From: an uncultured virus (IMG/VR IMGVR_UViG_3300031963_000055)
Taxonomy: Duplodnaviria; Heunggongvirae; Uroviricota; Caudoviricetes
IMG/VR virus record: IMGVR_UViG_3300031963_000055
Strand: one strand, 5' to 3'
Length of the DNA: 64,000 nt
The notes under the pieces are model-generated. The model did no database searches and was not told the origin of the DNA. It saw only the letters and a list, made by a program, of their open reading frames with translations. A program made the position numbers and the translations under genes. Positions 1-31,336 of this stretch are shown here, one piece after another; within the stretch, counting starts at the first letter, position 1; each line of letters begins with the position of its first letter.

Positions 1-8
1 CGAATATT

Positions 9-176
9 ATGAATAGTGAAAATGTGTCCAACGAAGCCGAAAACCCCGCATTGAATAAGGGTGATGTTAGTGGCAGTCAATTCTGTCCTAATTGCGGTAA
101 AGAACACGATAGCGATGAATGGAATGGATATTGTTCAAAAATATGTTGGTGGGGATTTCCTGTTGATTGCCACTAA
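9..176 (+). CDS. 55-aa zinc-finger-like microprotein (not in ORF track)
   Basis: Manual translation MNSENVSNEAENPALNKGDVSGSQFCPNCGKEHDSDEWNGYCSKICWWGFPVDCH*; CxxC...CxxxC. Confidence 0.6.
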   Translation: MNSENVSNEAENPALNKGDVSGSQFCPNCGKEHDSDEWNGYCSKICWWGFPVDCH

Positions 177-180
177 CGTT
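63..180. repeat. 18-bp imperfect inverted repeat flanking the zinc-finger module
   Basis: GATGTTAGTGGCAGTCAA (63-80) pairs with TTGATTGCCACTAACGTT (163-180); all deviations are G-T. Confidence 0.8.
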
Positions 181-210
181 TTGCAGCTAATAAATCTTAA
201 ATAAACAACT

Positions 211-528
211 ATGAAACAAATTATTATAATAATTATAACATTATTAACATTAAATTCTTGTGATACACCAGGAACTACAACAATGAGATTAACAGGCACT
301 GAAGCAAATTTACCTGAAGAATTAAAAGGATTAAAAATATATAATATTGCTACAGGTAGTGGTAATTATGTTAAAGTAGCAATACTAGATAATAAAGTTA
401 ATTCTACAACTTATAAAATTGGTAAACATGCGAAATCAACAATTATATTAAATACTAAAATAGAACAAGCGTATAAAGTTAGACGTTTAATATCTGAATC
501 AGATAGTATACTTGTATTTTTAAAATAA
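211..528 (+). CDS. Putative lipoprotein
   Basis: Hydrophobic N-terminus ending in lipobox-like LNSC. Confidence 0.6.
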   Translation: MKQIIIIIITLLTLNSCDTPGTTTMRLTGTEANLPEELKGLKIYNIATGSGNYVKVAILDNKVNSTTYKIGKHAKSTIILNTKIEQAYKVRRLISESDSILVFLK

Positions 529-548
529 TCAATAAACAAACAATAAAT

Positions 549-704
549 ATGAAAAGTAAATTTAAACAATTAGAATGCTTAATTGCATGGGCACAATTTT
601 ATTCAAATCATAAAAACTTAGCTATGCCTACTAATCGAGATGAGATAAAATTTAACAAATTACAAAAAGAAATTGAAAAACTTAAAACACAATTAATAGA
701 TTAA
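549..704 (+). CDS. Small hypothetical protein (51 aa, not in ORF track)
   Basis: ATG after A-rich leader; MKSKFKQLECLIAWAQ... Confidence 0.45.
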   Translation: MKSKFKQLECLIAWAQFYSNHKNLAMPTNRDEIKFNKLQKEIEKLKTQLID

Positions 705-819
705 TTATGGCAATTATTATTGAAAAGATAGACATTGATAGAACAGTGTTTAAGAAAACTTCTGAAGAAAAGAAGAAACTTAAAGAATTAAAAAGACTTT
801 ATAAACTAAGAATTAAGTA

Positions 820-1008
820 ATGACACTAGAACGACATATTGAACTAATAACTACAAAGAATATTACATTACTTAACCCAACAATGGAAGAAATGATTTAT
901 TGGAGTCAAAGCAATATATTTGTATTTATTAATCTCAAATGTATTGTTAAAAGTGATAAAATAGATCAAAAGTATAAATTAAGTAAATACAACATTAAAT
1001 TTAAGTAA
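820..1008 (+). CDS. Hypothetical protein
   Basis: ORF track. Confidence 0.45.
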   Translation: MTLERHIELITTKNITLLNPTMEEMIYWSQSNIFVFINLKCIVKSDKIDQKYKLSKYNIKFK

Positions 1009-1209
1009 CTCTAAAGGTTACAACATACACTAGGTGCATCATTACAAATATGAAAAGAGCTTGTATATAGATTTGATAGTTTATAATAGTGAATCTAATA
1101 GTAATAATTAAATAGATACTAGTAATAGTGAAGCTAATTAAAATTGCAAGATTTAATGTGTTGCTTAAAACTCGCAGCTATTATAAATAAAAACCATAAA
1201 TTTAATAAT

Positions 1210-1401
1210 ATGAAAGAAATATTACAAGAAATATTCTATAGGTATATGATGATTATGTGCGCTTTACATTTATTTTCATTTGGTATAATAATAATGCCTT
1301 TTGTAACATATAGCGAAGGACATCCTTATTACGCAATACTTTGTGCAATAATTATATACCCATCAAGTTTTATATTATTAGAAATATTTAAAAAAGAATA
1401 A
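1210..1401 (+). CDS. Small membrane protein (likely start ATG 1210)
   Basis: Two hydrophobic segments; in frame with ORF 1144..1401. Confidence 0.6.
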   Translation: MKEILQEIFYRYMMIMCALHLFSFGIIIMPFVTYSEGHPYYAILCAIIIYPSSFILLEIFKKE

Positions 1402-1402
1402 T

Positions 1403-1714
1403 ATGTCAGTAAAATGTTTATGTATAAACAATAAATTAAGACCTAAAGAAATACTTCCTCAAAATTGGATTAATGAAGGTACAGAATATACAATAAACTA
1501 TGTATATTACCATGTTAATCAAGGAATACAAGGAGTTACTTTAGATGAAGTACAAACTAAATCAGAAATATATTCAAGTTATAGATTAGATAGATTTGCC
1601 TTCACTAAAGAAGGTATTGAACAACTAATTGAATTAATGCAAGATTGTACTGAATTAGGTAAATTAGATATTCAAGAATTAATTGAAGAAAATAATTTAG
1701 AATTAATTGAATAA
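1403..1714 (+). CDS. Hypothetical protein
   Basis: ORF track, tightly packed after upstream gene. Confidence 0.7.
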   Translation: MSVKCLCINNKLRPKEILPQNWINEGTEYTINYVYYHVNQGIQGVTLDEVQTKSEIYSSYRLDRFAFTKEGIEQLIELMQDCTELGKLDIQELIEENNLELIE

Positions 1715-2035
1715 AACATTAAAAACAATATAATTAAACATGGGGTAATTAACCATGACTTTAATAGTGCTGACCCTAAGGAATTATACAATTGGCCAAA
1801 TTTGAGTGATTACTGGGAGGAAATTTATAAATATAGATGATTTGAAAGAAATAACTATATGAAGATAAAAGTACAGAACATAAATCTTATGAAAATTGAT
1901 TATGTAAAGCAGATTATATTGTTTTTATAAAATACTCAGTGTACCCAGAGTTTAAATGGGTGCTATTGGTCTCTGAAGAAAAGGGAACACGGTTAGCTGC
2001 AAGTTAAGCTATGACTGATGGAAAGACATCAAACA

Positions 2036-2153
2036 GTTCAAGTGGTGGAAATGGAAGACATACCGAGGTGTCGGCGAGTAGGACTGGTAATGCAGTTTAA
2101 ACCAATTAGGCCAAGAGGCTACTCATTTGAAGGTTCGATTCCTTCCTTGAACA
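2036..2153 (+). ncRNA. tRNA-like RNA (Leu-type D arm) without canonical anticodon arm, with enlarged central insertion
   Basis: Acceptor stem GTTCAAG/CTTGAAC; D arm TGGTGGAAATGGAAGACAT; T arm GAAGG-TTCGATT-CCTTC; CCGA-GGTG-TCGG hairpin then GAGTAG/CTACTC-closed arm in place of anticodon and variable arms. Confidence 0.75.
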
Positions 2154-2260
2154 CTAATTAAACAAATAAGTTCTGTGAATGGTACAGAATAATTTAGATC
2201 CTCATTACAGAGTTAATGTGTATAAGCTTAGAGTGTTTAATTATCTCTAGACGTCAGAGT

Positions 2261-2291
2261 AAACCACTTAGGAAAGTCCTGAGTGGTTTTT
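2261..2291 (+). terminator. Intrinsic terminator-like hairpin
   Basis: AAACCACTTAGG-AAAGT-CCTGAGTGGTTT followed by T tract. Confidence 0.6.
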
Positions 2292-2309
2292 AATTTAAAA
2301 ACTAATAAA

Positions 2310-2663
2310 ATGGAAGATGAATTTATTACATTTGAAATAGCTAAATTAGCTAAAGAAAAAGGGTTTGTTTTAAAAACAGGAATTAATTATTATAGTGATA
2401 AGGAAAATGATATGGCAATGTCCTATGATTTAAATAATATAAATCATTATCCTTGTGAAACTCAAAGTTTATTACAACGTTGGTTAAGAGAAATACATGG
2501 TTTACACATACATTTATATTTTATTGATCATATATTAGGATATAATTCAATTATTACAAATCTTAAAACTAATACTAAATTATTTAAAAGTAAACCTTTT
2601 ATAAAATACGAACAAGCTTTGGAAGAAGGACTTTATGAAGCACTTAAATTAATTAAAAACTAA
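2310..2663 (+). CDS. Hypothetical phage protein (likely start ATG 2310)
   Basis: ORF track; GTG 2283 lies inside the terminator hairpin; ITFEIAKLAKEKGF...YEQALEEGL pattern. Confidence 0.7.
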   Translation: MEDEFITFEIAKLAKEKGFVLKTGINYYSDKENDMAMSYDLNNINHYPCETQSLLQRWLREIHGLHIHLYFIDHILGYNSIITNLKTNTKLFKSKPFIKYEQALEEGLYEALKLIKN

Positions 2664-2682
2664 TCACTAAAACAAAGAAATT

Positions 2683-3021
2683 ATGAATAAACTACTCGAT
2701 ACATACTGTCGTATGTTATACTTTTGTAAAGGCAAGCCTACAAACTTAAGTACTTTAAGTAACTGGGAATTAAATGGTATATTATTACACATTAATAAAT
2801 ATCCTCAAGGACTTTTAAATGGATATGATAAATCAGAATATATTACAGCAGTTAAGTACATACTTAATGAAAGATTACATTGTAGAGATTATAAACGTAA
2901 TATTATTGAAACTAGATTAGCTAATAAAGCATTAGAAACTAGTAAACAATTAACTGATTTAATATTACAATCAATGATTAATACAGAAAAGAAATCTAGA
3001 AGAAAATTAATACTAACTTAA
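2683..3021 (+). CDS. Hypothetical protein
   Basis: ORF track. Confidence 0.65.
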   Translation: MNKLLDTYCRMLYFCKGKPTNLSTLSNWELNGILLHINKYPQGLLNGYDKSEYITAVKYILNERLHCRDYKRNIIETRLANKALETSKQLTDLILQSMINTEKKSRRKLILT

Positions 3022-3027
3022 ATAATT

Positions 3028-4185
3028 ATGAAAAATAAATTTGAAGTAGGCAAATGGTATAAAGTGAATAATGAATATACTAAGTTTCATTCTTTAGGTT
3101 CTGAAGGCGTGTTTTATGGTGTTGACCATATTTATAATGATAAATACCGAAAATCTATTTATGACAGCCCAACTTATATTTTTAGAAAAGTAGATAACCC
3201 AATTTTATTAACTGATTTATCTGAAATTCAACAATATTTACCAGATGGGCATCCAGATAAATTTGTTAATAAGTCTGAAACTTCTCCATTACCTGAAAAA
3301 TGGTATTTAGAAGTTACTAAAGATAATTTAAGTTATGTTAGTTCTAAAAGAGCTTGGAGTTTTGATATTATAGGATATATTCACTCTTCTTTAAGTCACA
3401 ATATACATAATTATTGGTTTCATAATAATGAACCTTTAAAAGGATATACTGAAATAACTTTAGAACAATTTAAAGAATATGTTGTAAAAGATGTTACAAG
3501 TAAAAAAGTTGAACCTGAAATACCTGAATATGTTGAGTGTATACAAAATGGTAATAATGCTACAATGCACCAAAAGTATTGTGGTGTTGATGTTGTAAAA
3601 GGTACTATTTATAAGGTTACTGAAAAAAGCATGCCTAATAAAGGAGCTCAATCTGAAGCTTATGTACTTGAAGGTGGTGGTGTAGGCTATTGTCTAGGAT
3701 TCAAACCTTCAACTAAAGAAGCTTTTGATGCTCAGAATAAGCCTAAAGAACAATCTATTGAAGAAATATTAGAAATCTGCAAGAAGAAATATCCTATTGA
3801 CACTGAAATTAAATCTGTTTATGGTAAACGTGGTGTTATAACTGGCAATTATCATATATTTGATAGAAATAACATTTTTGCCACTAGTGATAGTAAAGGA
3901 GATTTAATTTTATATCGAGGTTCAACTAAAGAATACGCTGAAATCATTTCATTACCTGAACCTATTAAATACCCTGATTTATCATTTAAAGATTTTGGAG
4001 TTCATATACATAAAGGTAATTATCAAGAATTAGAAAATATAATATGGGAGGGTAATATGACACCTGGTAATCATTTAAATTCTTTTTTTAATACTAAAAG
4101 TAAATCAAATGATTTAGAGTTTCAATATCCTGTAATTAATGTAAGAAATAAAAAGAAAAGTAAATTAATAATCATAAACCAATAA
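3028..4185 (+). CDS. Mosaic multi-module hypothetical protein
   Basis: Module LPEKW...GYTEITLEQFKEYV shared with 7944..8492; module EYVECI...KPSTKEAFDAQ shared with 7670..7951. Confidence 0.75.
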   Translation: MKNKFEVGKWYKVNNEYTKFHSLGSEGVFYGVDHIYNDKYRKSIYDSPTYIFRKVDNPILLTDLSEIQQYLPDGHPDKFVNKSETSPLPEKWYLEVTKDNLSYVSSKRAWSFDIIGYIHSSLSHNIHNYWFHNNEPLKGYTEITLEQFKEYVVKDVTSKKVEPEIPEYVECIQNGNNATMHQKYCGVDVVKGTIYKVTEKSMPNKGAQSEAYVLEGGGVGYCLGFKPSTKEAFDAQNKPKEQSIEEILEICKKKYPIDTEIKSVYGKRGVITGNYHIFDRNNIFATSDSKGDLILYRGSTKEYAEIISLPEPIKYPDLSFKDFGVHIHKGNYQELENIIWEGNMTPGNHLNSFFNTKSKSNDLEFQYPVINVRNKKKSKLIIINQ

Positions 4186-4196
4186 ACAAAAACAAC

Positions 4197-4547
4197 ATGG
4201 AAGTAACAAGTAAATCAGTAAGTAAATTTGTAGCTGCAACAATTGCATTTTTAACAGGAGATTCTGATACTGCAACAGCATTAAAGAATGAGAGATTAGC
4301 TCAAGCTAGTATCAAAGGTCAATTAAGTGCTTTAGAAGGTGCTTTAGTTAATGCTGAAGTAGATGTAGAGAATGCTAAAGAGAATTTAACTAAAGCAATT
4401 TATCCTACAGTATTAATTAGTAATCAACAAGGTTATTATAACAATATAGTTGGTGCTCAATCAAAGTTAGATGATGCTGAAGAAGCTTTAGCAAACATTA
4501 AGAAATCTATTGATTACGCTCAAGCATTGTTAAAAGATAAATTTTAA
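4197..4547 (+). CDS. Helical/coiled-coil hypothetical protein
   Basis: Ala/Leu-rich heptad-like pattern, A-rich leader. Confidence 0.7.
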   Translation: MEVTSKSVSKFVAATIAFLTGDSDTATALKNERLAQASIKGQLSALEGALVNAEVDVENAKENLTKAIYPTVLISNQQGYYNNIVGAQSKLDDAEEALANIKKSIDYAQALLKDKF

Positions 4548-4568
4548 TCTAGGCAATTAAAATAAGTA

Positions 4569-4634
4569 ACACTCATAGCTCAATTGGTTAGAGCACTAGA
4601 TATAGCGATGCAGGTTCGAGTCCTGTTGAGTGTT
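4569..4634 (+). ncRNA. 66-nt tRNA-like RNA with truncated anticodon arm
   Basis: Acceptor ACACTCA/TGAGTGT; D arm GCTC-AATTGGTTA-GAGC; T arm GCAGG-TTCGAGT-CCTGT; only 15 nt between D and T arms, containing CTA-GATA-TAG. Confidence 0.8.
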
Positions 4635-4637
4635 CAA

Positions 4638-4905
4638 AAAGATGTGAGGTAAAGACACCGCTGGATGGGTTGTTGTTAAAGGGCTGAGGAAGTATACACC
4701 TCGTAATCTTTTGATTGTTTGATATGGTATTAAGTGCTGTTGTGGGAAACTGCAATAGAATACCTAAATCACCCATTAAAAGTAAGAAACCTTTCAGGAC
4801 CGAGTCGTAAGTCACAACATCCTAGCTGGGTTCTACAATTGACTAGATGAAGAAGTCCGACCAAAATCGCATGGAACATAGTAAGCGTAGATAACTCACA
4901 TCTTT
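4638..4905 (+). ncRNA. Candidate ~268-nt structured RNA of unknown family
   Basis: 11-bp closing stem AAAGATGTGAG/CTCACATCTTT; nested helices ATGGGT/ACCCAT, GGTATT/AATACC, CTGTTGTGG-GAAA-CTGCAATAG, GAGG/CCTC; visibly raised GC. Confidence 0.65.
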
Positions 4906-4929
4906 AAAATTAACTATTTAACTTAAATT

Positions 4930-5289
4930 ATGAAATTAGAAGATGTTATTGCAGGACAATATTATGCTGCACATTATCCAGGAGGAGAAAATCCTACTAT
5001 TATTAAAGCTACTCACGATAAAAGTTTCAAACAAGCTTCAGGGATATACTATCGCGAATTACAGGATAATTATAATTATTTAAGCAGTAATGCATTTAGT
5101 TGTACTGATAAATTAAGATTAGCAACAGAAAAAGAAATTCATTGGTTAGATCTATCTATAAAAAATAACTATATTGTAGACTATGAAGTAGCTATGGAAT
5201 CATTTGCTAAAGAAAAACCTATTACTTATTCTAATGAACCAGATCCTGAATTAGCAGAAATATTAAAGAAATTATTAAACTTAAACTAA
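4930..5289 (+). CDS. Hypothetical protein with amphipathic C-terminal tail
   Basis: LRLATEKEI motif (compare WRYATPEEV in 7944..8492); tail ELAEILKKLLNLN. Confidence 0.7.
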   Translation: MKLEDVIAGQYYAAHYPGGENPTIIKATHDKSFKQASGIYYRELQDNYNYLSSNAFSCTDKLRLATEKEIHWLDLSIKNNYIVDYEVAMESFAKEKPITYSNEPDPELAEILKKLLNLN

Positions 5290-5297
5290 AAACTATT

Positions 5298-5516
5298 ATG
5301 AAAAAGAAATTAACTAAAAGACAACCTTTATCTGAAGCTATTAGACAACAAGCTAAATTACATGCTAAGTATAAAGAATACTCTTTAAAGACTGAAGAAG
5401 AATTAACTGAAATGTATCCTTTACTTGGTGGAGGTTATCGTGAAGTATGTTTCCAAGTAATTAGAGAGAAACATTTTGCTAAAATGGAACAAGATTTAGA
5501 AGGGGAGGTAAAGTAA
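5298..5516 (+). CDS. Hypothetical protein
   Basis: ORF track; TAATG overlap with next gene. Confidence 0.65.
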   Translation: MKKKLTKRQPLSEAIRQQAKLHAKYKEYSLKTEEELTEMYPLLGGGYREVCFQVIREKHFAKMEQDLEGEVK

Positions 5517-5728
5517 TGATAACTAAAGAAGAAGTAAATCAAATTATTAACAAACCTAAACCATCTTATGAGGATAAAATTAATGTAATTGCTAAATATA
5601 TCTTTGATTTAAAACAAGAAGATATTTCAGTAGTTAAGATTAATCCTCCTCAAAATGATGTAATGGAAGCAATCATGGAGCATATGTTTACCGTGTCATC
5701 AAATTATTATCACCGTGGAGAACATTAA
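5516..5728 (+). CDS. Hypothetical protein
   Basis: ORF track; overlaps both neighbours. Confidence 0.65.
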   Translation: MITKEEVNQIINKPKPSYEDKINVIAKYIFDLKQEDISVVKINPPQNDVMEAIMEHMFTVSSNYYHRGEH

Positions 5729-7646
5729 TGAATTATTAGAAGCCCTACAAACTATAGATAATAAAAAACTATATTTTATAGGTAATACTGAAGTATTTGA
5801 AAGCACTTTATATAAACAAACAACTATTGATGAATGTATTAATTGGTTAAATAGTTTATATGAAGTTAATTTAGATACAGAAACTGAAGGTATGTTCAAT
5901 CATAAAAACAAGATAGTAATGCTTCAATTAAATTGGGGTAATGTTAGTTTTGTTATAGATGTAAGAACAGTAGATATTTCTCCACTAAGAGAGAAACTAG
6001 AAAAAATATTAGTAGTTGGTCAGAATTTAAAATTTGATTATAAATTCCTTAAATTACATGGTATTGAACTAGACAATGTATATGATACTATGTTAGCAGA
6101 ATGTTGTTTAACTAATGGTAAAGAAGATAGAGAATTAAATTTAAAAGCTTTAGCATTAAAATATTGTAATATACATCTAAATAAAGATGTTAGAAATCAA
6201 TTTACAAGTTTAAATGGGCACCCTTTTACAGAAGCTCAAATAGTGTATGGTGTAGGCGATGTTACTTGTTTAACTGAGATTAAAACTAAACAAATAGAAT
6301 TAATTAAAAAGTTAGATTTAGTAGAATGGGTGCAAAATGAAATGAATGCTAGTTTACCATTAGCTGATATAGAGTATAATGGTATGGGATTCAATAAAGA
6401 AGCTTGGTTATACTTAGCTAATAAAGCTGAAGCTAATGTACATAATTATACAGCAGAACTAGATGCATTAACTGTAAGTGAGCCTAAACTAAGTAAGTTT
6501 GTTAAAGCTGAAGTACAAGGTAATTTATTTGCTGAAATAGATGAAAGTTTTTCACATGGGAGAAATGTAAATATCAAATGGTCTAGCCCTACTCAAATGG
6601 ATAAAGTATTCAAAGCTTTAGGATTAGATATCGAAAAGACAGGTGAGAGATTCTTAACTAAGTATCAAAATGATTATCCTTTAGTTAAGAAGTTTATAGA
6701 TTATAAGAAACAAGCTAAGTTAGTTACTACTTATGGTAAGAAGTTTTTAGGGTATGTAAACCCAACAACTCAAAGAATCCATACTAGTTTTTGGCAAATA
6801 TTAGACACCACAAGAGTTTCTTCTGGTGATAAATATTCTCCTAATATGCAAAATATTCCAGCTAAGGTTGAATACAGAAACTGTTTTATACCTAAACCAG
6901 GTTTTAAAATGGTGTCATGTGATTTTAGTGGTCAGGAATTGCGTTTAACAGCATTTGGTAGTAAAGAACCATTATGGGTAGACGCCTTTAATAAAGGTGA
7001 GGATTTACACTCTAATGTAGCCTCCATGGTGTTTAAAGTACCATTAGAAAATGTTAGAGATAAACCAGACTTTCTTAGAGGTAAGTCTTATAGAGATGCT
7101 GCTAAAACTGTTAATTTTGGACTAGTTTATGGTATGTCAAAGTATAAATTAGCTGATACATTATCTATTGAAGTAGATGCTGCTGATATGATTATTAAGA
7201 ATTATTTTAAAGCTACAATACAACTAAATAACTTTTTAGCTGGTTGTAGAGCTTACGGTATGAAATATGGTTATATAAGATGCTTTGCTCCATATAAAAT
7301 CATTAGGTATTTTCCTAAATGGAAACCTGTTAGAGAAGCTATGGAATTTAAAGAAATAGGTAGTATTGAAAGGGCTTCAATGAATACACCTATTCAAAGT
7401 GCAGGAGGTCAGATGACTAAACGTGCTTTAGTAGTGTTAAGAAAGTATATTAAGGATAATAATTTACAAGATAAAGTACAGATTGTAATGACTGTACATG
7501 ACCAAATTGATTGTGAAGTTGAAGAATCATTTGTAAATGAATGGTCTTTAATTCAAAAAGATATTATGGAATCAGCAGGTAGAGAAATTATTACTAATAT
7601 ACCAGTACTATCTGACATTACTATAAGTGACTCGTGGACCAAATAA
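5715..7646 (+). CDS. polA: Family A DNA polymerase with 3'-5' exonuclease domain
   Basis: Exo motifs DTETEG, GQNLKFD, YGVGD; pol motifs DFSGQELR (A), RDAAKTVNFGLVYG (B), VHDQID (C). Confidence 0.95.
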   Translation: MENINELLEALQTIDNKKLYFIGNTEVFESTLYKQTTIDECINWLNSLYEVNLDTETEGMFNHKNKIVMLQLNWGNVSFVIDVRTVDISPLREKLEKILVVGQNLKFDYKFLKLHGIELDNVYDTMLAECCLTNGKEDRELNLKALALKYCNIHLNKDVRNQFTSLNGHPFTEAQIVYGVGDVTCLTEIKTKQIELIKKLDLVEWVQNEMNASLPLADIEYNGMGFNKEAWLYLANKAEANVHNYTAELDALTVSEPKLSKFVKAEVQGNLFAEIDESFSHGRNVNIKWSSPTQMDKVFKALGLDIEKTGERFLTKYQNDYPLVKKFIDYKKQAKLVTTYGKKFLGYVNPTTQRIHTSFWQILDTTRVSSGDKYSPNMQNIPAKVEYRNCFIPKPGFKMVSCDFSGQELRLTAFGSKEPLWVDAFNKGEDLHSNVASMVFKVPLENVRDKPDFLRGKSYRDAAKTVNFGLVYGMSKYKLADTLSIEVDAADMIIKNYFKATIQLNNFLAGCRAYGMKYGYIRCFAPYKIIRYFPKWKPVREAMEFKEIGSIERASMNTPIQSAGGQMTKRALVVLRKYIKDNNLQDKVQIVMTVHDQIDCEVEESFVNEWSLIQKDIMESAGREIITNIPVLSDITISDSWTK

Positions 7647-7669
7647 AAATCAATTAAATTTATTTTAAT

Positions 7670-7951
7670 ATGGGAGAATATGTAAAATGTATTAGTTTAA
7701 AAACTAAACCTGATGGTATAACGTTACCTGGTGTACTTGGTAAAATATATAAAATTAGAGAAGAACATAGTGAATTAGATTGGTATGTAGAAGGTATAGC
7801 TCATTCTGTAGCTAAAACTAGACTTCAACCAGCTACTAAAAAAGAATATGATTTACAACAACAAGGTGTTTATGTAGAAGATGTTTTAGTTGAAGATACC
7901 AGTCATGAAGAAATATTAATTAAACTATTAAAAGATATTAAACATGTTTAG
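7670..7951 (+). CDS. Hypothetical protein of the mosaic family
   Basis: EYVKCI...GKIYKI...PATKKEYDLQ module; tail EEILIKLLKDI. Confidence 0.7.
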   Translation: MGEYVKCISLKTKPDGITLPGVLGKIYKIREEHSELDWYVEGIAHSVAKTRLQPATKKEYDLQQQGVYVEDVLVEDTSHEEILIKLLKDIKHV

Positions 7952-8492
7952 AAAAGATGAATATATTGTATGTTTAAATACACCTGAAAAAGATTGTGAT
8001 TTTCCACCTAATTATATTTACAAACAAAGAAATGATGAAGAGTGTTTAAGTGTTTATTTAGATAATACTGGTGTAGTAAATGGTTGGTCACTAATAATGT
8101 ATAACGGTACAGGTAAGTATTCTGAATGGCGTTATGCAACTCCTGAAGAAGTTGAACATTATGAACTTCTCGGTAAACCTTATGATGTAACTACATTACC
8201 TAAATTTGTATTACCTGAGAAATGGTGTGTTAAAGATACAGCTAGTGAAAAATCTAATGAGTTGTATAAGTATGCTGGTATTCATGGTGCTTTTCCTCCT
8301 TATACACCAGCTGATTACTGTGTGTATTATCATTTTCCAAAACATGATGAATGTACAACATCAGATGTAGTAGAAGAAGGTTACACTGAAATAACTTTAG
8401 CTCAATTTAAAACTTATGTATTAGGCAATGTAATAGTTAAAGAAGATTATAGTTATTTAATTGAATTTTTAACAACTAAAGGAATAAAATAA
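7944..8492 (+). CDS. Hypothetical protein of the mosaic family
   Basis: LPEKWC...GYTEITLAQFKTYV module; tail KEDYSYLIEFLTTKGIK. Confidence 0.75.
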   Translation: MFRKDEYIVCLNTPEKDCDFPPNYIYKQRNDEECLSVYLDNTGVVNGWSLIMYNGTGKYSEWRYATPEEVEHYELLGKPYDVTTLPKFVLPEKWCVKDTASEKSNELYKYAGIHGAFPPYTPADYCVYYHFPKHDECTTSDVVEEGYTEITLAQFKTYVLGNVIVKEDYSYLIEFLTTKGIK

Positions 8493-13778: not shown

Positions 13779-13832
13779 ATAACCTTTTAAATATTCCTCT
13801 TATTTTTGTATCTTTATAATAAAAATACAGAT

Positions 13833-14570
13833 ATGAAAATAAGTGGAATAGGGTTTATTTATATGATTACCAACCCAAAAAGAAAAATTTATATAGGGTC
13901 TACAATTGATTTTGATTATAGATTTTCTCAATATAAGAGATTACATTGTAAGGGACAAACAAAATTATATAGAAGTTTATCTAAATATGGTTATGAAAAC
14001 CATGCTTTTGATGTAATTTGGGCTGGTCCTATTGAAGAGATGTATAAATATGAAACTATGATTGGATGGGGATTTAATGCGCTAGAAAAAGAAGAGGGGT
14101 TAAATTGTAAATTACCTAAATTTGGAGATACTTATAGTGTTTTTAGTGATGAAATTAGACTTAAAATTAGTACATCTAATAAAGGATTTAAACATTCAAA
14201 AGAGACGAGAGAAAACATGAGTAGGGCAGGTAAAGGTCGGATTTTTACAGAAGAACATCGTAAAAATATAAGTAATGCTTTTAAAGGACGAAAATTACCT
14301 CAAAAACATATAGATATACTTATAGCTTGTCATAAAGGAAAAAAGCAAACTCTACAACATAAAAATAATGCTACCAAAGCAAGAATGAAACCAGTATTAC
14401 AATATGATTTAAATATGAATTTTATAAAAGAATGGGAAAGTATTAAAACAGCAGCATTAGAATTAAACATCAATAGTCAAAGTATTGGTTGTTGTTGTAG
14501 AAATAAATCAAAAAAAGCCGGAAATTTTAAATGGGAATTTAAATTATTTCAAGGAGTTAAAGTATTATAA
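13833..14570 (+). CDS. Free-standing GIY-YIG homing endonuclease with NUMOD3/NUMOD1-like modules (likely start ATG 13833)
   Basis: GFIY...IYIGST...R; HSKETRENMS repeats; KPVLQYDL...IKEWESIKTAA...CC C-terminus. Confidence 0.85.
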   Translation: MKISGIGFIYMITNPKRKIYIGSTIDFDYRFSQYKRLHCKGQTKLYRSLSKYGYENHAFDVIWAGPIEEMYKYETMIGWGFNALEKEEGLNCKLPKFGDTYSVFSDEIRLKISTSNKGFKHSKETRENMSRAGKGRIFTEEHRKNISNAFKGRKLPQKHIDILIACHKGKKQTLQHKNNATKARMKPVLQYDLNMNFIKEWESIKTAALELNINSQSIGCCCRNKSKKAGNFKWEFKLFQGVKVL

Positions 14571-17040: not shown

Positions 17041-19047
17041 ACAGAGGATAGAACAGGGTTTATCAGGTGAATATACAGGATTAGCTAATGGATTTGACAG
17101 AATTAATAAGTATATTTATAATATACAAAGAGGTTGCTACACTTTAATCGGTGGTTTAAGTGGATCTAGTAAGACGACACTTTGTGATTTTATATTACTA
17201 AATGGTTTACAAGATGCTCAGGCAAAAGGTATCCCATTTAATGTAACTTATTACTCTTGGGAGATTGATGAAGTAAGTAAAAAAGCCAATTGGTTATCTG
17301 TACTAATCTATAATAAGTATGACAGAGTTATCTCTCCTCAGACTATTAAGGGATTAGGTGATTCTAGGTTAACTGAAGAAGAACAAGAAATAGTTTATGA
17401 TACATTACCTGAATTAGAAGAACTATTTTCAAAGATTACTTGGCATTGGACACCGGTTAATCCTACTGGATTGTACTCTGAGTGGTGGAAAACAATGTCA
17501 GATAAAGGTAAGTTTACAACTATACCTTATATTGATGATGATGGTAATCCTAAAGACAGAATAACAGGTTGGACAGCTTATAATAAAGAAGAATATAATA
17601 TTGTAGTATTAGATCACTTAGCTTTAGGTAAGATAGAAAGAGGGTTTACACTTAAACAGAATATTGATAAAATATCTGAATACATTGTAGGATGTAGAAA
17701 TATGTTTAATATGACATTCTATATTGTGGCCCAATTTAATCAAGGGTTTCATAAAAAAATCACAAATTAATTTGTGTATGTTAAAGTTATTTCGTATATT
17801 TAAATATGACAGGAATATACAAAATAACAAATTTAGTAACAAACAAAGTTTATATTGGTAGTGCAATAAATATAGATAGTAGAATTAAAGCACATATTAG
17901 TAAATTAAAAGGTAACTTACACATTAACAAACACTTACAATCTTCATATAATAAGTATGGAGAGAATAATTTCAAGTTTGAATTAATAAGAGAAGTTTCT
18001 AATAATATACTGAGAAGAGCTGAACAATTTTATATTAATAAATACCAATCAATAAATCCAAAATACGGATATAATAAGGCCACTGTTGTCTCAAATACTT
18101 GGGACGATATAGAAAAACCTATTATATTAAAAGATAAAATCTATTTTGGATGTTATAATAAACAAGGTAAGTTAGTAAAAGTTTTTAAAACAATAGACGA
18201 GGTAAAAACTTTTTTAAATGTTAAAAAGTGTACAAGGGTTTATGAGTCTTGTAATAGTAATTTAACAAAAACAGCATATAATTATTATTGGATAAGATTA
18301 GATATGGCAATATTTAAATTTCAAAATAAATTAAATGTTTTTAAAAGAAAAGGTAGGCATCGTGAATTATTGCAATATGATTTAGAAGGTAACTTTATTA
18401 AAAAATGGGATTGTGCAACTGATGTTGCGGTTTTTTTTAATGTACACCCAAGTAATATTACAAAATGTTTAAAAACAAATAACATATACAGAAATAATAA
18501 GTGGTTTTACTCGGCCCCCTAGTATGGTAACATACTTTGAATAACCCAGAATATCGGTGGACATCCTGAAGAGGACAATACCGAGAGATAGATTAATTGT
18601 GAAATTAATAAGCTCGTAACGACTACCAATGGGTATCCTATAGTCTATAGGATAATGGTATAGTCTGCTCTGCAAGTATAACAAAATAAGTTGCAGTTAA
18701 CATAACATGTGAGTAGTGTTGAACGATTAAAGTTTAAAGGTGCAGATATTTCTCCACAACAAACTGATTTCAAAGACTCAACTTCTCCTTACCAAGATGC
18801 TGATATAGTAATGGGTTTAATGAATGCCTATAAAATGGATTTAGAAACCAACTTAAATTACAATATTAAAGTAGATGGATTTCCTTATAATTTAAAAGGT
18901 AAATACAGACTTCTTAAGGTAATTAAAAATAGATTAGGTCAAGACAATATATCTATTGGTTTATATACCAAACCTGAAGCTGGTTACTTTGAAGAATTAC
19001 CTAAAGAAATGACATCAGAAGATTACACAAGATACTTAAACAAATAA
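17027..19047 (+). CDS. dnaB: DnaB-like replicative helicase, spliced: exons 17027-17747 and 18710-19047 (352 aa)
   Basis: Walker A-like GGLSGSSKT, VVLDHL, spliced AQFNQG-L-SSVER, QDADIV, KNRLG; the join T|TG restores the frame. Confidence 0.9.
17771..17802 (+). promoter_or_regulatory. Bacteroidota-type promoter for the intron endonuclease
   Basis: TTTG-N20-TATATTTA, close to the -33/-7 consensus TTTG/TAnnTTTG. Confidence 0.5.
17806..18522 (+). CDS. Intron-encoded GIY-YIG homing endonuclease
   Basis: TGIYKITN...VYIGSA...R...H...N.HLQ...E...GYN; two NUMOD1-like C-terminal modules. Confidence 0.9.
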   Translation: MTGIYKITNLVTNKVYIGSAINIDSRIKAHISKLKGNLHINKHLQSSYNKYGENNFKFELIREVSNNILRRAEQFYINKYQSINPKYGYNKATVVSNTWDDIEKPIILKDKIYFGCYNKQGKLVKVFKTIDEVKTFLNVKKCTRVYESCNSNLTKTAYNYYWIRLDMAIFKFQNKLNVFKRKGRHRELLQYDLEGNFIKKWDCATDVAVFFNVHPSNITKCLKTNNIYRNNKWFYSAP

Positions 19048-30118: not shown

Positions 30119-31336
30119 ATGGAAAATATAAACTCAGTTTGTTATATAAACAAAATTAATAAAATTGAATCTATTGAAGGTGCAGACAAAATAGAATTGT
30201 GTACTGTTAATGGATGGACATCTGTTACCCAAAAAGGCATCCATAAAGAAGGTGATTTGATATTATGTATTACAACTGATGCAGTAATACCTGAAGATTT
30301 AGCTACGCAATGGGGTTGTATTAGCTATCTTAGAAATAAATCTAGGGTTAGAACAGTTAAACTAAAAGGTGTTTATAGTGAATGTATTTTAATCCCTTTA
30401 AAAGATATATTAACTAAAAATACTTTTAAAGAAGGTCAAGATTTATCTGAAGATTTACAAATATTTAAATATGAACCTCCTGTGAGAGAAATGTTAAATG
30501 TAAGTGTTCCTAAAGTATATTTTAAATGGAATAAAATACATAAATTTTCAATGTGGAGATCATTTGTAAATTATAAAATTAATAAACTTAGAAATAAGTT
30601 TAAAAAATATTATAAAGATAATGTGAATTTTGATAAATATTATAAATTTCCTAATCAAAAGAATACTCCACACATGTTTAGTGAATTAGATGTAGTTGTA
30701 ATTACTCGTAAAATGCATGGAACTAATGCTAGATATGGTATTGTTAAAAAGAATCTTATAAGTCCTTTAGATAAACTTAAGAAATTATTTGGAGATGAAT
30801 GGATAGAATATGAATATGTCTATGGTTCTCATAATGTAGAAAAAGGTTCTGATTCTCAAGGTTTTTACTCTACAGATGTTTGGCAAGAAATTGCTGATAA
30901 GTATCAAATAAAACAGTTACTTTGGGGATATGTTAAAACTAATTATACTCCTAAATTATTAGGTAAAGGTATCATTATTTATGGTGAGATATTTGGACCA
31001 GGTATTCAAAAGAATTATGATTATGGGTATGAAAATATAGAATTTGAAGCTTTTGATATTCAATTTAATGGAGAATATTTATCTGATTTTGAATTTCAAT
31101 CTAGGATTAAAGATATACTAACTGCTCAAAATGTAGTTGATTATTTATATGAGGGTAACTGGTCTAAAGAAATTCAAGATAAATTTGTATTTAATAACTT
31201 TATTGAGAATTCTAAAGTACCACATGAAGGTGTCGTAGTTAAATGTATATCTGGAGATAGGAAGAAGATTTCTAAAGTAATTAATCCTGACTATTTAACT
31301 TATGGAGAAAAACATGGAACAACAGACTCACATTAA
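30119..31336 (+). CDS. ATP-dependent RNA ligase (Rnl2/DRB0094-like)
   Basis: N-terminal IEGADKIE domain; KMHGTN, YGEIFG, FDI, EGVVVK, KVIN motifs. Confidence 0.88.
   Translation: MENINSVCYINKINKIESIEGADKIELCTVNGWTSVTQKGIHKEGDLILCITTDAVIPEDLATQWGCISYLRNKSRVRTVKLKGVYSECILIPLKDILTKNTFKEGQDLSEDLQIFKYEPPVREMLNVSVPKVYFKWNKIHKFSMWRSFVNYKINKLRNKFKKYYKDNVNFDKYYKFPNQKNTPHMFSELDVVVITRKMHGTNARYGIVKKNLISPLDKLKKLFGDEWIEYEYVYGSHNVEKGSDSQGFYSTDVWQEIADKYQIKQLLWGYVKTNYTPKLLGKGIIIYGEIFGPGIQKNYDYGYENIEFEAFDIQFNGEYLSDFEFQSRIKDILTAQNVVDYLYEGNWSKEIQDKFVFNNFIENSKVPHEGVVVKCISGDRKKISKVINPDYLTYGEKHGTTDSH

Follow-up and report, generated by a model that had tools for sequence, protein, structure and literature searches.

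The 118-nt element at positions 2036–2153 of the window (the whole 64,000-nt stretch of DNA that was analysed), which we call e1 and whose source is a crAss-like phage, is best explained as a tRNA-derived processing handle through which RNase P and a tRNA 3′ nuclease would define the ends of two adjoining RNAs, X and Y, and which carries a conserved, lineage-specific payload; from comparison of sequences, we put the probability of this reading at roughly 0.55. Host RNase P would recognise the acceptor stem, T arm and elbow and cut at the proposed site 2035/2036, removing X. A tRNA 3′ endonuclease (of the RNase Z type, or RNase E plus trimming) would cut after A2153, leaving the 5′ end of Y 1–2 nt before the Y closing helix, and the freed e1 would probably gain CCA and persist as a stable tRNA-shaped RNA. 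As part of this reading, we somewhat favour a non-coding transcription unit in which e1 lies 4 nt after X and 1–2 nt before the closing helix of Y, in the following order:

1900–1933, plus strand: TTATGTAAAGCAGATT...TTTATAAAAT, a conserved upstream stretch that may be the unit's promoter; L045, which lacks X, has a similar stretch immediately ahead of its tRNA-like
1934–2031, plus strand: leader block X, 98 nt, four consecutive hairpins (P1, 1936–1969; P2, 1970–1986; P3, 1991–2016; P4, 2017–2030, loop GAAAGA); 15 distinct loci, with compensatory changes
2032–2035, plus strand: spacer AACA, 4 nt, from X to the acceptor stem
2036–2153, plus strand: e1, a non-decoding tRNA-like of 118 nt including discriminator A2153, supported by stem and loop reading, module shuffles and orthologue pair counts; identical copy in genome G001, 118-nt orthologue in genome G002
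2155–2259, plus strand: block Y, a folded RNA with a consensus fold; eight viral contigs representing seven distinct genomes, the window included
2155–2164 with 2234–2243, plus strand: closing helix of Y, core AAUUAAAC/GUUUAAUU
2172–2188, plus strand: inner hairpin A of Y
2245–2259, plus strand: hairpin C of Y
2261–2294, plus strand: intrinsic-terminator-like hairpin (13 bp, loop within UUAGGAAAGUCCU) and U run, given as 2261–2289 when taken as the terminator of the unit; one found by a terminator scan, 0.6 expected

Architecture of e1

Direct reading and pair counts bore out all the structural features listed in the original prediction, namely a 7-bp acceptor stem, a T arm, a Leu-type D arm, a stub with a GGTG loop, a GAGTAG/CTACTC arm enclosing a further hairpin, and the lack of an encoded CCA. 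The parts of e1 are as follows:

2036–2042, plus strand: acceptor stem, 5′ strand GTTCAAG; 7/7 Watson–Crick pairs with 2146–2152, two of them changed on both sides in the G002 orthologue
2045–2061, plus strand: D arm GTG-GAAATGGAAGA-CAT, type-II or Leu-like; 3 bp including one G-U, 11-nt loop with GG
2063–2074, plus strand: stub at the anticodon-arm position, CCGA-GGTG-TCGG; closed 4-bp stem and 4-nt loop, the stem invariant in the orthologue
2076–2124, plus strand: enlarged, branched variable-arm domain, 49 nt; outer helix and nested hairpin(s), two differences from the orthologue
2076–2081 with 2119–2124, plus strand: outer helix of this domain, GAGTAG/CTACTC
2082–2097, plus strand: nested hairpin of this domain, GACTG-GTAATG-CAGTT
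within 2076–2124, plus strand: possible second hairpin, GGCC-AAGA-GGCT
2129–2145, plus strand: T arm GAAGG-TTCGATT-CCTTC; 5/5 pairs, canonical T loop, two pairs changed on both sides in the orthologue, local T-arm match in Rfam
2146–2152, plus strand: acceptor stem, 3′ strand CTTGAAC, pairing with 2036–2042 by pair counts against the orthologue

The discriminator A2153 is followed by CTA, and the elbow elements are complete (U8, the GG of the D loop, and TTCGATT). Among the features of a canonical tRNA, e1 has the closing 7-bp acceptor and the T-Psi-C type loop together with the D-loop GG, while a canonical anticodon arm (5-bp stem, 7-nt loop, U33, purine 37) is absent and its position is taken by the 4-bp/4-nt stub. 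Modules consisting of a 7/7 acceptor, a 5/5 T stem with at least three G-C pairs and a TTCRA loop occur twice in the window, at e1 and at 4569–4634, whereas 100 dinucleotide shuffles averaged 0.02; two of these contained any module, and none more than one.

The frame is that of a type-II tRNA. The true tRNA-Leu(UAA) of L015 has a D arm, TG-ATG-AAAAGGTAGA-CAT, of the same layout, and tRNA-Leu shares with e1 the 7-bp acceptor, U8, the 3-bp D stem, the 11-nt loop with GG, the T arm, discriminator A and an arm at the variable position. It differs in that e1 has no anticodon loop and in the size of the variable domain, which is 49 nt in e1 but 12–14 nt in true tRNA-Leu. Within the favoured reading, we lean towards e1 being a selected RNA derived from a long-variable-arm (Leu-like) tRNA, in which the anticodon arm was sealed and the variable arm grew.

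The slot between X and Y

The evidence that carries the processing reading comes mainly from the neighbours of e1. Conservation of X starts sharply at 1934, with an alignment identity of 84–91% and compensatory changes in P2, P3 and P4; the P4 stem variants are UGAUG/CAUCA, CUUG/CAAG, UGCUG/CAGCA and GCUCG/CGGGC. X matched no Rfam family at E up to 10, and its core gave 0 matches in a search of one genome per bacterial species. A tRNA or tRNA-like follows X within 3–6 nt in 12 of the 14 informative loci that carry X. True tRNAs stand behind X in L015, L018 and L026 (tRNA-Leu(UAA)) and in L025 (tRNA-Arg(UCU)), and a further tRNA-like ends 2 nt (L020) or 25 nt (L025) before X.

Two ribozyme classes were considered for X and rejected. 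As for a hammerhead, with the consensus CUGANGA, 5 of the 10 aligned copies of X have G in place of the A. Theta (HDV-like) ribozymes lie a few nucleotides from phage tRNAs, commonly tRNA-Leu, and are thought to aid tRNA maturation; according to PMC10879173, they have an HDV fold and sit downstream of the tRNA, with the cleavage site at the tRNA 3′ end. X is similar as a conserved structured RNA a few nucleotides from phage tRNA genes, but it lies upstream, consists of four plain hairpins, gives no sign of self-cleavage and has no HDV-family match at E up to 10. Separately, GGAAAGWC was considered as a recurrent motif of the window and is not enriched there (3 sites, 2.07 expected).

Y is more stable than chance (MFE z-score −3.82, 0/200 shuffles as stable), and searching it against Rfam at E up to 10 returned no family, only a 22-bit sub-threshold trpB match over the terminator region. 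The terminator hairpin is conserved in seven sequences, in which one-sided changes preserve pairs. We used Y, and not tRNA shape, to ascertain which elements occupy the slot before it, and in 6 of the 7 distinct genomes that carry Y, its closing helix is preceded at 1–6 nt by the end of a tRNA-like that has a 7/7 acceptor and discriminator A. Besides e1 and its orthologue, the six occupants comprise a 47-nt acceptor/T minihelix and elements of 126 nt, 74 nt (with a 13-nt loop) and 70 nt (whose TTGG tetraloop is sealed); their centres were called unrelated and their sequences differ, yet the acceptor is 7/7 in all six, and ARAGORN recognised none of them as a standard tRNA. In L045, by contrast, about 150 nt separate Y from the tRNA-like upstream, which weighs against the processing reading. 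Since unrelated look-alikes fill the slot and one of them is a bare acceptor/T minihelix, the top half of the tRNA is the part that the occupants share. This half is also the part recognised by tRNA-processing enzymes, and the slot itself would, on the favoured reading, require nothing further. Some slot members have non-canonical T loops (TAAAGT in L014, GGCAGTA in L019, CTCAGAC in L016 and L020), which fits minihelix recognition better than aminoacylation. A 3′ signature, N-C-W-A, is common to real tRNAs and look-alikes (for example ACTA, ACAA and TCAA).

In L004, one of three relatives with tmRNA genes (L002, L003 and L004), no spacer separates the minihelix at 3059–3105 from the tmRNA (Rfam tmRNA 2671–3058), whose gene encodes a terminal ...ACCA; an RNase P cut at the start of the minihelix would leave the tmRNA with a CCA end. 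The tRNA-like domain of tmRNA resembles e1 in its acceptor and T arm, its lack of an anticodon and, in relatives, its genomic neighbourhood. We rejected e1 as a tmRNA itself, as its 3–70 pair is U3-A70 and not G3-U70, it has no tag reading frame or pseudoknots, ARAGORN in tmRNA mode found none, and the window has no RF00023 match. The window contains a second architecture like that of e1 and Y, in which the anticodon-less tRNA-like at 4569–4634 is followed, after a 3-nt gap, by a stretch of about 270 nt closed by an 11-bp helix (4638–4648 with 4896–4906).

In plant mitochondrial t-elements, in mitochondrial tRNA punctuation and in MALAT1-mascRNA, a non-decoding tRNA shape adjoins an RNA, and RNase P and RNase Z set its ends. 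Like these, e1 is a tRNA-shaped non-decoder right beside another RNA: it has the acceptor and T helices, as do 6 of the 7 Y-linked elements, and it directly adjoins its neighbours. Unlike them, it belongs to a bacteriophage and its neighbours are structured non-coding RNAs (X and Y, or the tmRNA in L004); e1 further differs from t-elements and mascRNA in its type-II origin and large conserved centre, and its cleavage is proposed. No account of phages using anticodon-less tRNA-likes to punctuate RNA came up in full-text literature searches on this class of element and on freshwater-1. The usual view of phage tRNA genes is as codon supply or as anti-defence spares, whereas here a tRNA frame is kept without decoding between structured RNAs. 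If the processing model is true, phages would cut multi-part non-coding transcripts with host tRNA-maturation enzymes, on the same principle as in mitochondria and at MALAT1, and the model would open a way into three RNA modules: X (15 loci) and Y (7 genomes), both without an Rfam family, and payload-bearing tRNA frames.

The conserved centre and a possible role in trans

An exact 24-mer of the e1 T arm and acceptor had no match in viral contigs, and a 21-mer of its centre matched the G002 contig only, so that a single orthologue, syntenic and 118 nt long, could be used. G002 keeps e1 and Y but has no X, and removal of X therefore cannot be the essential role of e1. Four pairs show compensatory changes between e1 and the orthologue (acceptor 2041–2147 and 2042–2146; T stem 2129–2145 and 2130–2144), and no acceptor or T pair is broken. 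With one orthologue this signal beats a column-shuffle control weakly (24/500 shuffles as high). Recombination with another member of the family may be the source of the 3′ part of the orthologue.

The centre behaves differently. Its 63 nt differ at three positions (95.2% identity; P = 0.006 if the neighbouring ORF's 16% divergence is applied), while the flanks are about 64.5–84% identical, including 64.5% for the T arm and 3′ acceptor region and 69.9% for Y. The D-arm region 2043–2061 is the same at 19/19 bases. The stub loop is GGTG in e1 and GTTG in the orthologue; of the two differences in the variable arm, one is a loop base and the other breaks the pair 2078–2122. The covariation check proposed originally gave a positive but statistically weak result for the acceptor and T stems and none for the central helices, in a comparison with a single orthologue. 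Folding energy of the 67-nt centre was at chance level (MFE −17.3 vs −13.8 ± 2.9 kcal/mol; 66/500 shuffles as stable) and that of the whole of e1 was modest (z-score −1.28), so that the support for the central helices is sequence conservation in the orthologue and not energy or covariation. The D-arm 19-mer is also present in another phage tRNA-like (L029, L031 and L032). In bacterial genomes the 19-nt word has 53 matches, 0/53 of them tRNAs by ARAGORN. An acceptor partner is possible for 1/53, and many of the matches have flanks that look like coding sequence; the bacterial search says nothing about the origin of e1.

A pure cutting signal would not need a centre and an entire D arm so strongly conserved, which argues against such a signal, and judging from the sequences the centre probably is, in its own lineage, a payload with a function of its own. 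This lends some support to the original proposal of a non-decoding scaffold displaying an RNA domain, although the context mainly favours a different role: e1 occupies a slot flanked upstream by a conserved leader and downstream by a helix-closed RNA that is likewise conserved.

A rather unlikely alternative is that the freed e1 is itself the product, a tRNA mimic acting in trans. Its frame would stabilise and mature a conserved centre that binds a host factor, or e1 would divert, as a decoy or sponge, enzymes or defence nucleases recognising type-II tRNAs or acceptor ends. The near-identical centre and D arm beside diverged flanks, and the intact elbow, agree with this, as do the discriminator A and the Leu-like D arm, two features that weigh more than the anticodon in the identity of E. 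coli LeuRS substrates. Different large centres are also borne on one frame, with acceptor, D and T arms in common, by the look-alikes L021 (74 nt) and L027 (143 nt). Published defence nucleases excise tRNA anticodon arms, as described in PMC12445682 and PMC13434031. Against a mimic, the slot accepts a bare 47-nt minihelix and payload-free sealed tetraloops, the centre folds no better than chance, and the sole substitution within a central helix breaks a pair. The longest complement of the centre within the window is 10–11 nt, as against 9–14 nt in shuffles, giving no antisense target beyond chance. Nor is a partner protein evident, as Pfam and PHROG annotation tied none of the ORFs near e1 to tRNA or RNA processing. 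No relatives of the 385-aa neighbour protein were found, and blastn of window positions 1–8000 against the phage collection gave no match.

Tentatively, the payload and processing readings might be joined: freshwater and wastewater crAss-like phages would keep natural tRNA scaffolds, type-II frames with exchangeable payloads of 0 to about 100 nt that are matured by host tRNA enzymes and released with X and Y. The 63-nt centre of e1 would then be an effector directed at the host in trans; it might, for instance, bind or mislead a factor or a defence nuclease that recognises long-variable-arm tRNAs. Ponchon and Dardel reportedly engineered tRNA scaffolds in which foreign RNA in the anticodon region is processed and stabilised by cellular enzymes; these are man-made, unlike e1, whose cargo function is suggested by conservation in one orthologue.

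Uncut, spliced and decayed alternatives

Improbably, X-e1-Y or e1-Y could stay uncut, with the tRNA shape as an internal or terminal domain of a larger RNA. The RNA-library data, which are contigs covering small shares of the stretch and whose gaps carry no meaning, include a 157-nt contig of run X1 (depth 2.2) that is identical to 1963–2119 and crosses the proposed RNase P site without a difference. Because it bridges this site, either an uncut X-e1 form exists, which could be a precursor, or the contig is library DNA. Libraries X5 and X6 contain Y-like contigs. Two contigs from these libraries carry a diverged X with no tRNA-like following in the 30 nt shown, which weighs against the processing reading. 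Co-inheritance of e1 and Y in the window and G002 agrees with a larger RNA, but X is optional, the tRNA-like is exchangeable, and Y closes by its own helix right after the tRNA-like and looks independently folded.

An RNA that looks similar is the T4 species 1 RNA (rnaC; AF158101, 70908–71046), which lies in the T4 tRNA cluster and is annotated only as a "small, stable RNA" of 139 nt. Its nucleotides 47–137 form a tRNA-like with a 7/7 acceptor and the T arm CCGGG-TTCGAAT-CCCGG, behind a 46-nt 5′ extension. As in the X-e1 sequence, a non-tRNA 5′ part in rnaC precedes a tRNA-like that has a 7/7 acceptor, a canonical T arm and no normal anticodon loop. It differs in being annotated as one 139-nt species, so that its two parts stay joined, and in its location, within a tRNA array and not in an X/Y unit; comparing the sequences by eye, we noticed no resemblance. 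If the processing model for e1 is true, it might inform on the role of the T4 RNA.

Very little speaks for a decoder that arises by removal of an unconventional intron. As predicted, e1 received no tRNA call: ARAGORN in default mode found 0 tRNAs across the whole window, and the Rfam tRNA model (RF00005) matched the T arm of e1 only (13.2 bits, E 8.9, below the gathering score of 29). Elements of this kind escape tRNA finders or, if called, carry odd labels such as "tRNA-???". In intron mode ARAGORN did propose tRNA-Asp(GTC) with a 31-nt intron at position 36/37, and the phage has an RNA ligase gene (30119–31336; Pfam RNA_ligase E 4e-15, PHROG 968 E 2.7e-51), but the same mode also returned a tRNA for 99 of the 200 shuffled versions of the 67-nt centre. 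In the model it proposed for e1, the anticodon stem contains a mismatch and a G-U, the intron position is non-canonical, and the two perfect helices are lost. Under a strict rule (one excised segment, a 5-bp stem with at least four Watson–Crick pairs and a Y-U-NNN-R loop), e1 gave 0 solutions and the control tRNA-Leu of L015 passed. The only 5-bp/7-nt hairpin in the centre (2095–2111) has A at the U33 position and sits inside the variable domain. The splicing route to a 7-nt anticodon loop, named in the original prediction as what would overturn it, hence yields nothing credible, and the description of e1 as non-decoding, which stem reading, ARAGORN and Rfam also support through the missing anticodon loop, stands.

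It is similarly hard to sustain that e1 is a dying, now functionless tRNA-Leu gene, as the true tRNA-Leu(UAA) genes at the equivalent place behind X in three relatives and the chance-level fold of the centre might suggest: in agreement with the original rejection of a decayed pseudogene, the orthologue has four compensatory changes and no broken pair in its acceptor and T stems, the centre has diverged less than the neighbouring ORF and Y, and all six look-alikes before Y keep 7/7 acceptors despite their differing sequences.

Anatomy of the element and its lack of decoding

The window comes from a crAss-like phage and has a G+C content of 26-31%. Its genes include those for a Crassvirus muzzle protein (Pfam E 1e-126), a family A DNA polymerase, proteins of helicase and primase type, two GIY-YIG endonucleases and one RNA ligase, and one ORF is 3730 aa long. 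The original prediction had expected an undetermined or pseudo call from tRNA finders; ARAGORN reported neither a tRNA nor a tmRNA anywhere in the 64 kb, and the single tRNA-type match at Rfam gathering thresholds was at 4569-4634, not at the element under study (e1).

Features of the window
1934-2031, + strand: leader X, 98 nt with four hairpins (P1-P4), directly upstream of e1
2036-2153, + strand: e1, a 118-nt tRNA-like element
2155-2259, + strand: RNA Y, directly downstream of e1, with a terminator at 2261-2289
4569-4634, + strand: second anticodon-less tRNA-like (Rfam tRNA 51.3 bits), a 3-bp stem with a GAUA loop replacing the anticodon arm
13806-14570 and 17806-18522, + strand: two GIY-YIG/NUMOD homing-endonuclease-like ORFs inside the replication module
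30119-31336, + strand: RNA ligase (Pfam RNA_ligase and PHA02142 OB fold) at the end of the + strand block

On re-reading, all the features originally listed for e1 were present in the sequence. The acceptor stem (GTTCAAG/CTTGAAC) is paired 7/7, the T arm reads GAAGG-TTCGATT-CCTTC, and the 3-bp D stem carries an 11-nt loop with GG, the same layout as in the true tRNA-Leu(UAA) of another phage locus (L015). A closed stub (CCGA-GGTG-TCGG) occupies the anticodon position, GACTG-GTAATG-CAGTT is nested inside the helix GAGTAG/CTACTC, and the discriminator A is followed by CTA, so that no CCA is encoded. By position, what had been described as an extra domain is placed at the long variable arm of a type-II tRNA. 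The acceptor and T-arm module lies far beyond chance: the window has 2 of them, where 100 dinucleotide shuffles average 0.02. Taken alone, the centre is less well supported than this module; its fold energy was equalled in 66 of 500 shuffles, and the fold of the whole of e1 gave z = -1.28.

e1 does not decode. The Rfam tRNA model covered its T arm only (13.2 bits). In intron mode, ARAGORN proposed a tRNA-Asp(GTC) interrupted at 36/37 by an intron of 31 nt, but shuffling the centre still left a tRNA call in 99 of 200 cases, so the call is not evidence of decoding and this candidate was rejected. A strict single-excision rule, passed by a control tRNA-Leu, gave 0 solutions in e1. No credible splice to a 7-nt anticodon loop, the outcome that would have contradicted the original claim, therefore emerges.

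Three nucleotides past the second tRNA-like begins a stretch of ~270 nt (4638-4906, +), in which 4638-4648 and 4896-4906 pair as a closing helix of 11 bp (AAAGAUGUGAG/CUCACAUCUUU). By eye it appears G+C-richer than its surroundings; it has no Rfam match and folds with z = -1.60.

Comparison with an orthologous element

We conclude that e1 is real and under selection. A 19-nt word from its D arm led to an orthologue of 118 nt in another virus record (G002, locus L033). G002 shares synteny with the window to either side of e1 (upstream ORF 84% and polymerase 81% identical).

Differences between the window and G002
Acceptor stem: 2 pairs altered on both sides
T stem: 2 pairs altered on both sides
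Central helices: none altered on both sides; one substitution disrupts pair 2078-2122
First 89 nt of e1: 94.4% identity
D-arm word: identical, 19/19
Centre: 3/63 positions differ
Linker, T arm and 3′ acceptor: 64.5% identity
RNA Y: 69.9% identity

The four pairs changed on both sides support the earlier argument that e1 is not a decayed pseudogene; the covariation proposed as a check shows up in the acceptor and T stems of this one orthologue and not in the central helices. The evidence for selection comes from a single orthologue, and the covariation was equalled or exceeded in 24 of 500 shuffles, a weak control. At the 16% divergence of the neighbouring ORF, three or fewer differences in 63 positions have P = 0.006. 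Towards its 3′ end, the copy in G002 resembles family member L043 in T arm and acceptor and may there have been acquired via recombination, which would still leave the two changes in the 5′ strand of the acceptor to be made.

The slot between leader X and RNA Y

An exact-word scan for leader X gave 11 metagenome loci (one the window itself, two being L003); viral contigs and two loci found via Y brought the total to 15 distinct loci (window, L003, L014-L016, L018-L022, L025-L027, L047 and L050). In alignments taking in 10-11 of the 15, X is 84-91% identical; its flanks appear unrelated on reading, compensatory changes are seen in each of the hairpins P2, P3 and P4, and no Rfam family matched. 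The L022 sequence stops right after X, which leaves 14 informative loci, and in 12 of them a tRNA or tRNA-like begins 3-6 nt past X; in L016 and L020 a helix-closed insert of ~105 nt precedes it. What follows X is a true tRNA-Leu(UAA) in L015, L018 and L026, a true tRNA-Arg(UCU) in L025, an element with an odd ARAGORN call in L021, L016/L020 and L047, and an ARAGORN-invisible element in the window, L003, L014, L019, L027 and L050; many retain the Leu-type D arm (TGGCGGAATTGGTAGACGC) and A73. Because G002 is without X, the leader is optional, whereas the tRNA-like and Y travel together. Repeats of the last X hairpin (UGAC-N-stem-GAAAGA-stem) are also present without the rest of X in L015, L018, L019, L026 and L027. 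Theta ribozymes, tRNA-adjacent phage RNAs that an excerpt of PMC10879173 places downstream of tRNAs and gives an HDV fold, are unlike X, which was rejected as one of them.

RNA Y folds with z = -3.82 and matched no Rfam family; its closing helix (AAUUAAAC/GUUUAAUU) begins 2 nt past the discriminator of e1. A gapped pattern derived from Y found 8 viral loci (L043-L050), or 7 distinct genomes counting the window. Six of the 7 have a tRNA-like, with discriminator A and a 7/7 acceptor, whose 3′ end lies 1-6 nt from the Y helix, the exception being L045 (~150 nt upstream of Y). Since the search went through Y, it does not account for the perfect acceptor stems. Besides e1 and its orthologue, the six comprise a 47-nt acceptor/T minihelix, elements of 126 nt and of 74 nt (the latter with a 13-nt loop), and one of 70 nt in which a TTGG tetraloop seals the anticodon arm; ARAGORN found no standard tRNA among them. 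The minihelix (L004) follows without a gap on a tmRNA gene ending in ACCA, and the L043 tRNA-like starts 4 nt past the stop codon of the upstream ORF. Together with its terminator (2155-2294), Y has a covarying hairpin and a conserved sequence in the terminator loop, and the ORFs downstream of it differ among the 7 phage genomes.

The RNA evidence consists of assembled contigs of RNA libraries, hence without transcript ends. A freshwater metatranscriptome contig of 157 nt (depth 2.2) equals 1963-2119 and spans the X/e1 junction, and two wastewater RNA libraries contain Y-like contigs and a diverged X, after which no tRNA-like was seen within the 30 nt shown. These contigs hint that the region around e1 is present in RNA, DNA carry-over being another possible source.

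A putative processing function and related elements

Judged from anatomy and comparison, e1 would be a tRNA-like processing element within a phage non-coding RNA unit. All occupants of the slot have the acceptor/T-arm helix in common, in most cases with an elbow, and this is the part of a tRNA that RNase P, RNase Z and the CCA-adding enzyme recognise, which is why we read e1 as a probable handle for tRNA-maturation enzymes. RNase P would cut at 2035/2036; cleavage past 2153 by a tRNA 3′ nuclease would place the 5′ end of Y beside its closing helix. Because conservation of the centre and D arm exceeds the needs of a cutting signal, the centre could be a lineage-specific payload added to the handle, and e1 may have a scaffold role in addition. 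Processing by a tRNA-like element is a known principle, for which a phage non-coding RNA unit would be a new setting.

In its proposed function, e1 comes nearest to t-elements, mitochondrial punctuation and mascRNA. Among phage RNAs the nearest analogue is T4 rnaC (species 1 RNA), annotated as a small stable RNA in the T4 record (L028, 70908-71046); a script identified nt 47-137 as a tRNA-like behind a 46-nt 5′ extension, with a 7/7 acceptor (CGGAACG/CGTTTCG) and the T arm CCGGG-TTCGAAT-CCCGG, and found no such module in T4 rnaD. Searches of full-text literature outside subscription journals gave no description of this arrangement; the available part of a survey of structured RNAs in viruses (PMC10690425) treats tRNA-like candidates in general terms only.

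That the main function of e1 is instead that of a trans-acting mimic, decoy or scaffold appears unlikely, though it deserves consideration. An uncut composite RNA resembling T4 rnaC, which the contig bridging the X/e1 junction would favour, is more doubtful still. The excision and shuffle results make a spliced decoder highly improbable, and the two-sided pair changes and conserved centre leave as little room for a dying gene.

Related crAss-like phages carry tmRNA genes at L002 2788-3185, L003 2201-2589 and L004 2671-3058 (Rfam 43.6, 65.9 and 31.6 bits, respectively; ARAGORN tag ...ELELQAA in L003). In L015, freshwater-1 RNA is matched at 1750-1812 (72.3 bits, gathering score 72), within ~300 nt that lie downstream of tRNA-Leu and are enclosed by a long inverted repeat (GAATAAGAAAGATCTCTT / AAGAGATCTTCTTATTC). 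The tRNA-like between X and Y in L047 (380-454) was labelled tRNA-??? by ARAGORN with a four-base anticodon, CTAG; with CUA in its loop, it is a possible amber-reading or quadruplet-reading tRNA. L003 has a tRNA-Leu(UAG)-like (4080-4165) with good D, anticodon and T arms whose ends fail to pair as an acceptor, and just after it a tRNA-like (4173-4262) with 27 nt replacing the anticodon loop. The exact 19-nt D-arm word of e1 recurs in a tRNA-like of a G+C-rich phage (L029, L031 and L032, ~394-540) that encodes its CCA and has a non-canonical centre of ~78 nt; ARAGORN, applied to L029 alone of the three, found no tRNA there. Finally, L021 857-930 and L027 2554-2696 have the acceptor, D arm and T arm in common and centres of 24 and 93 nt, which suggests that whole centres may be exchanged on a constant tRNA frame.
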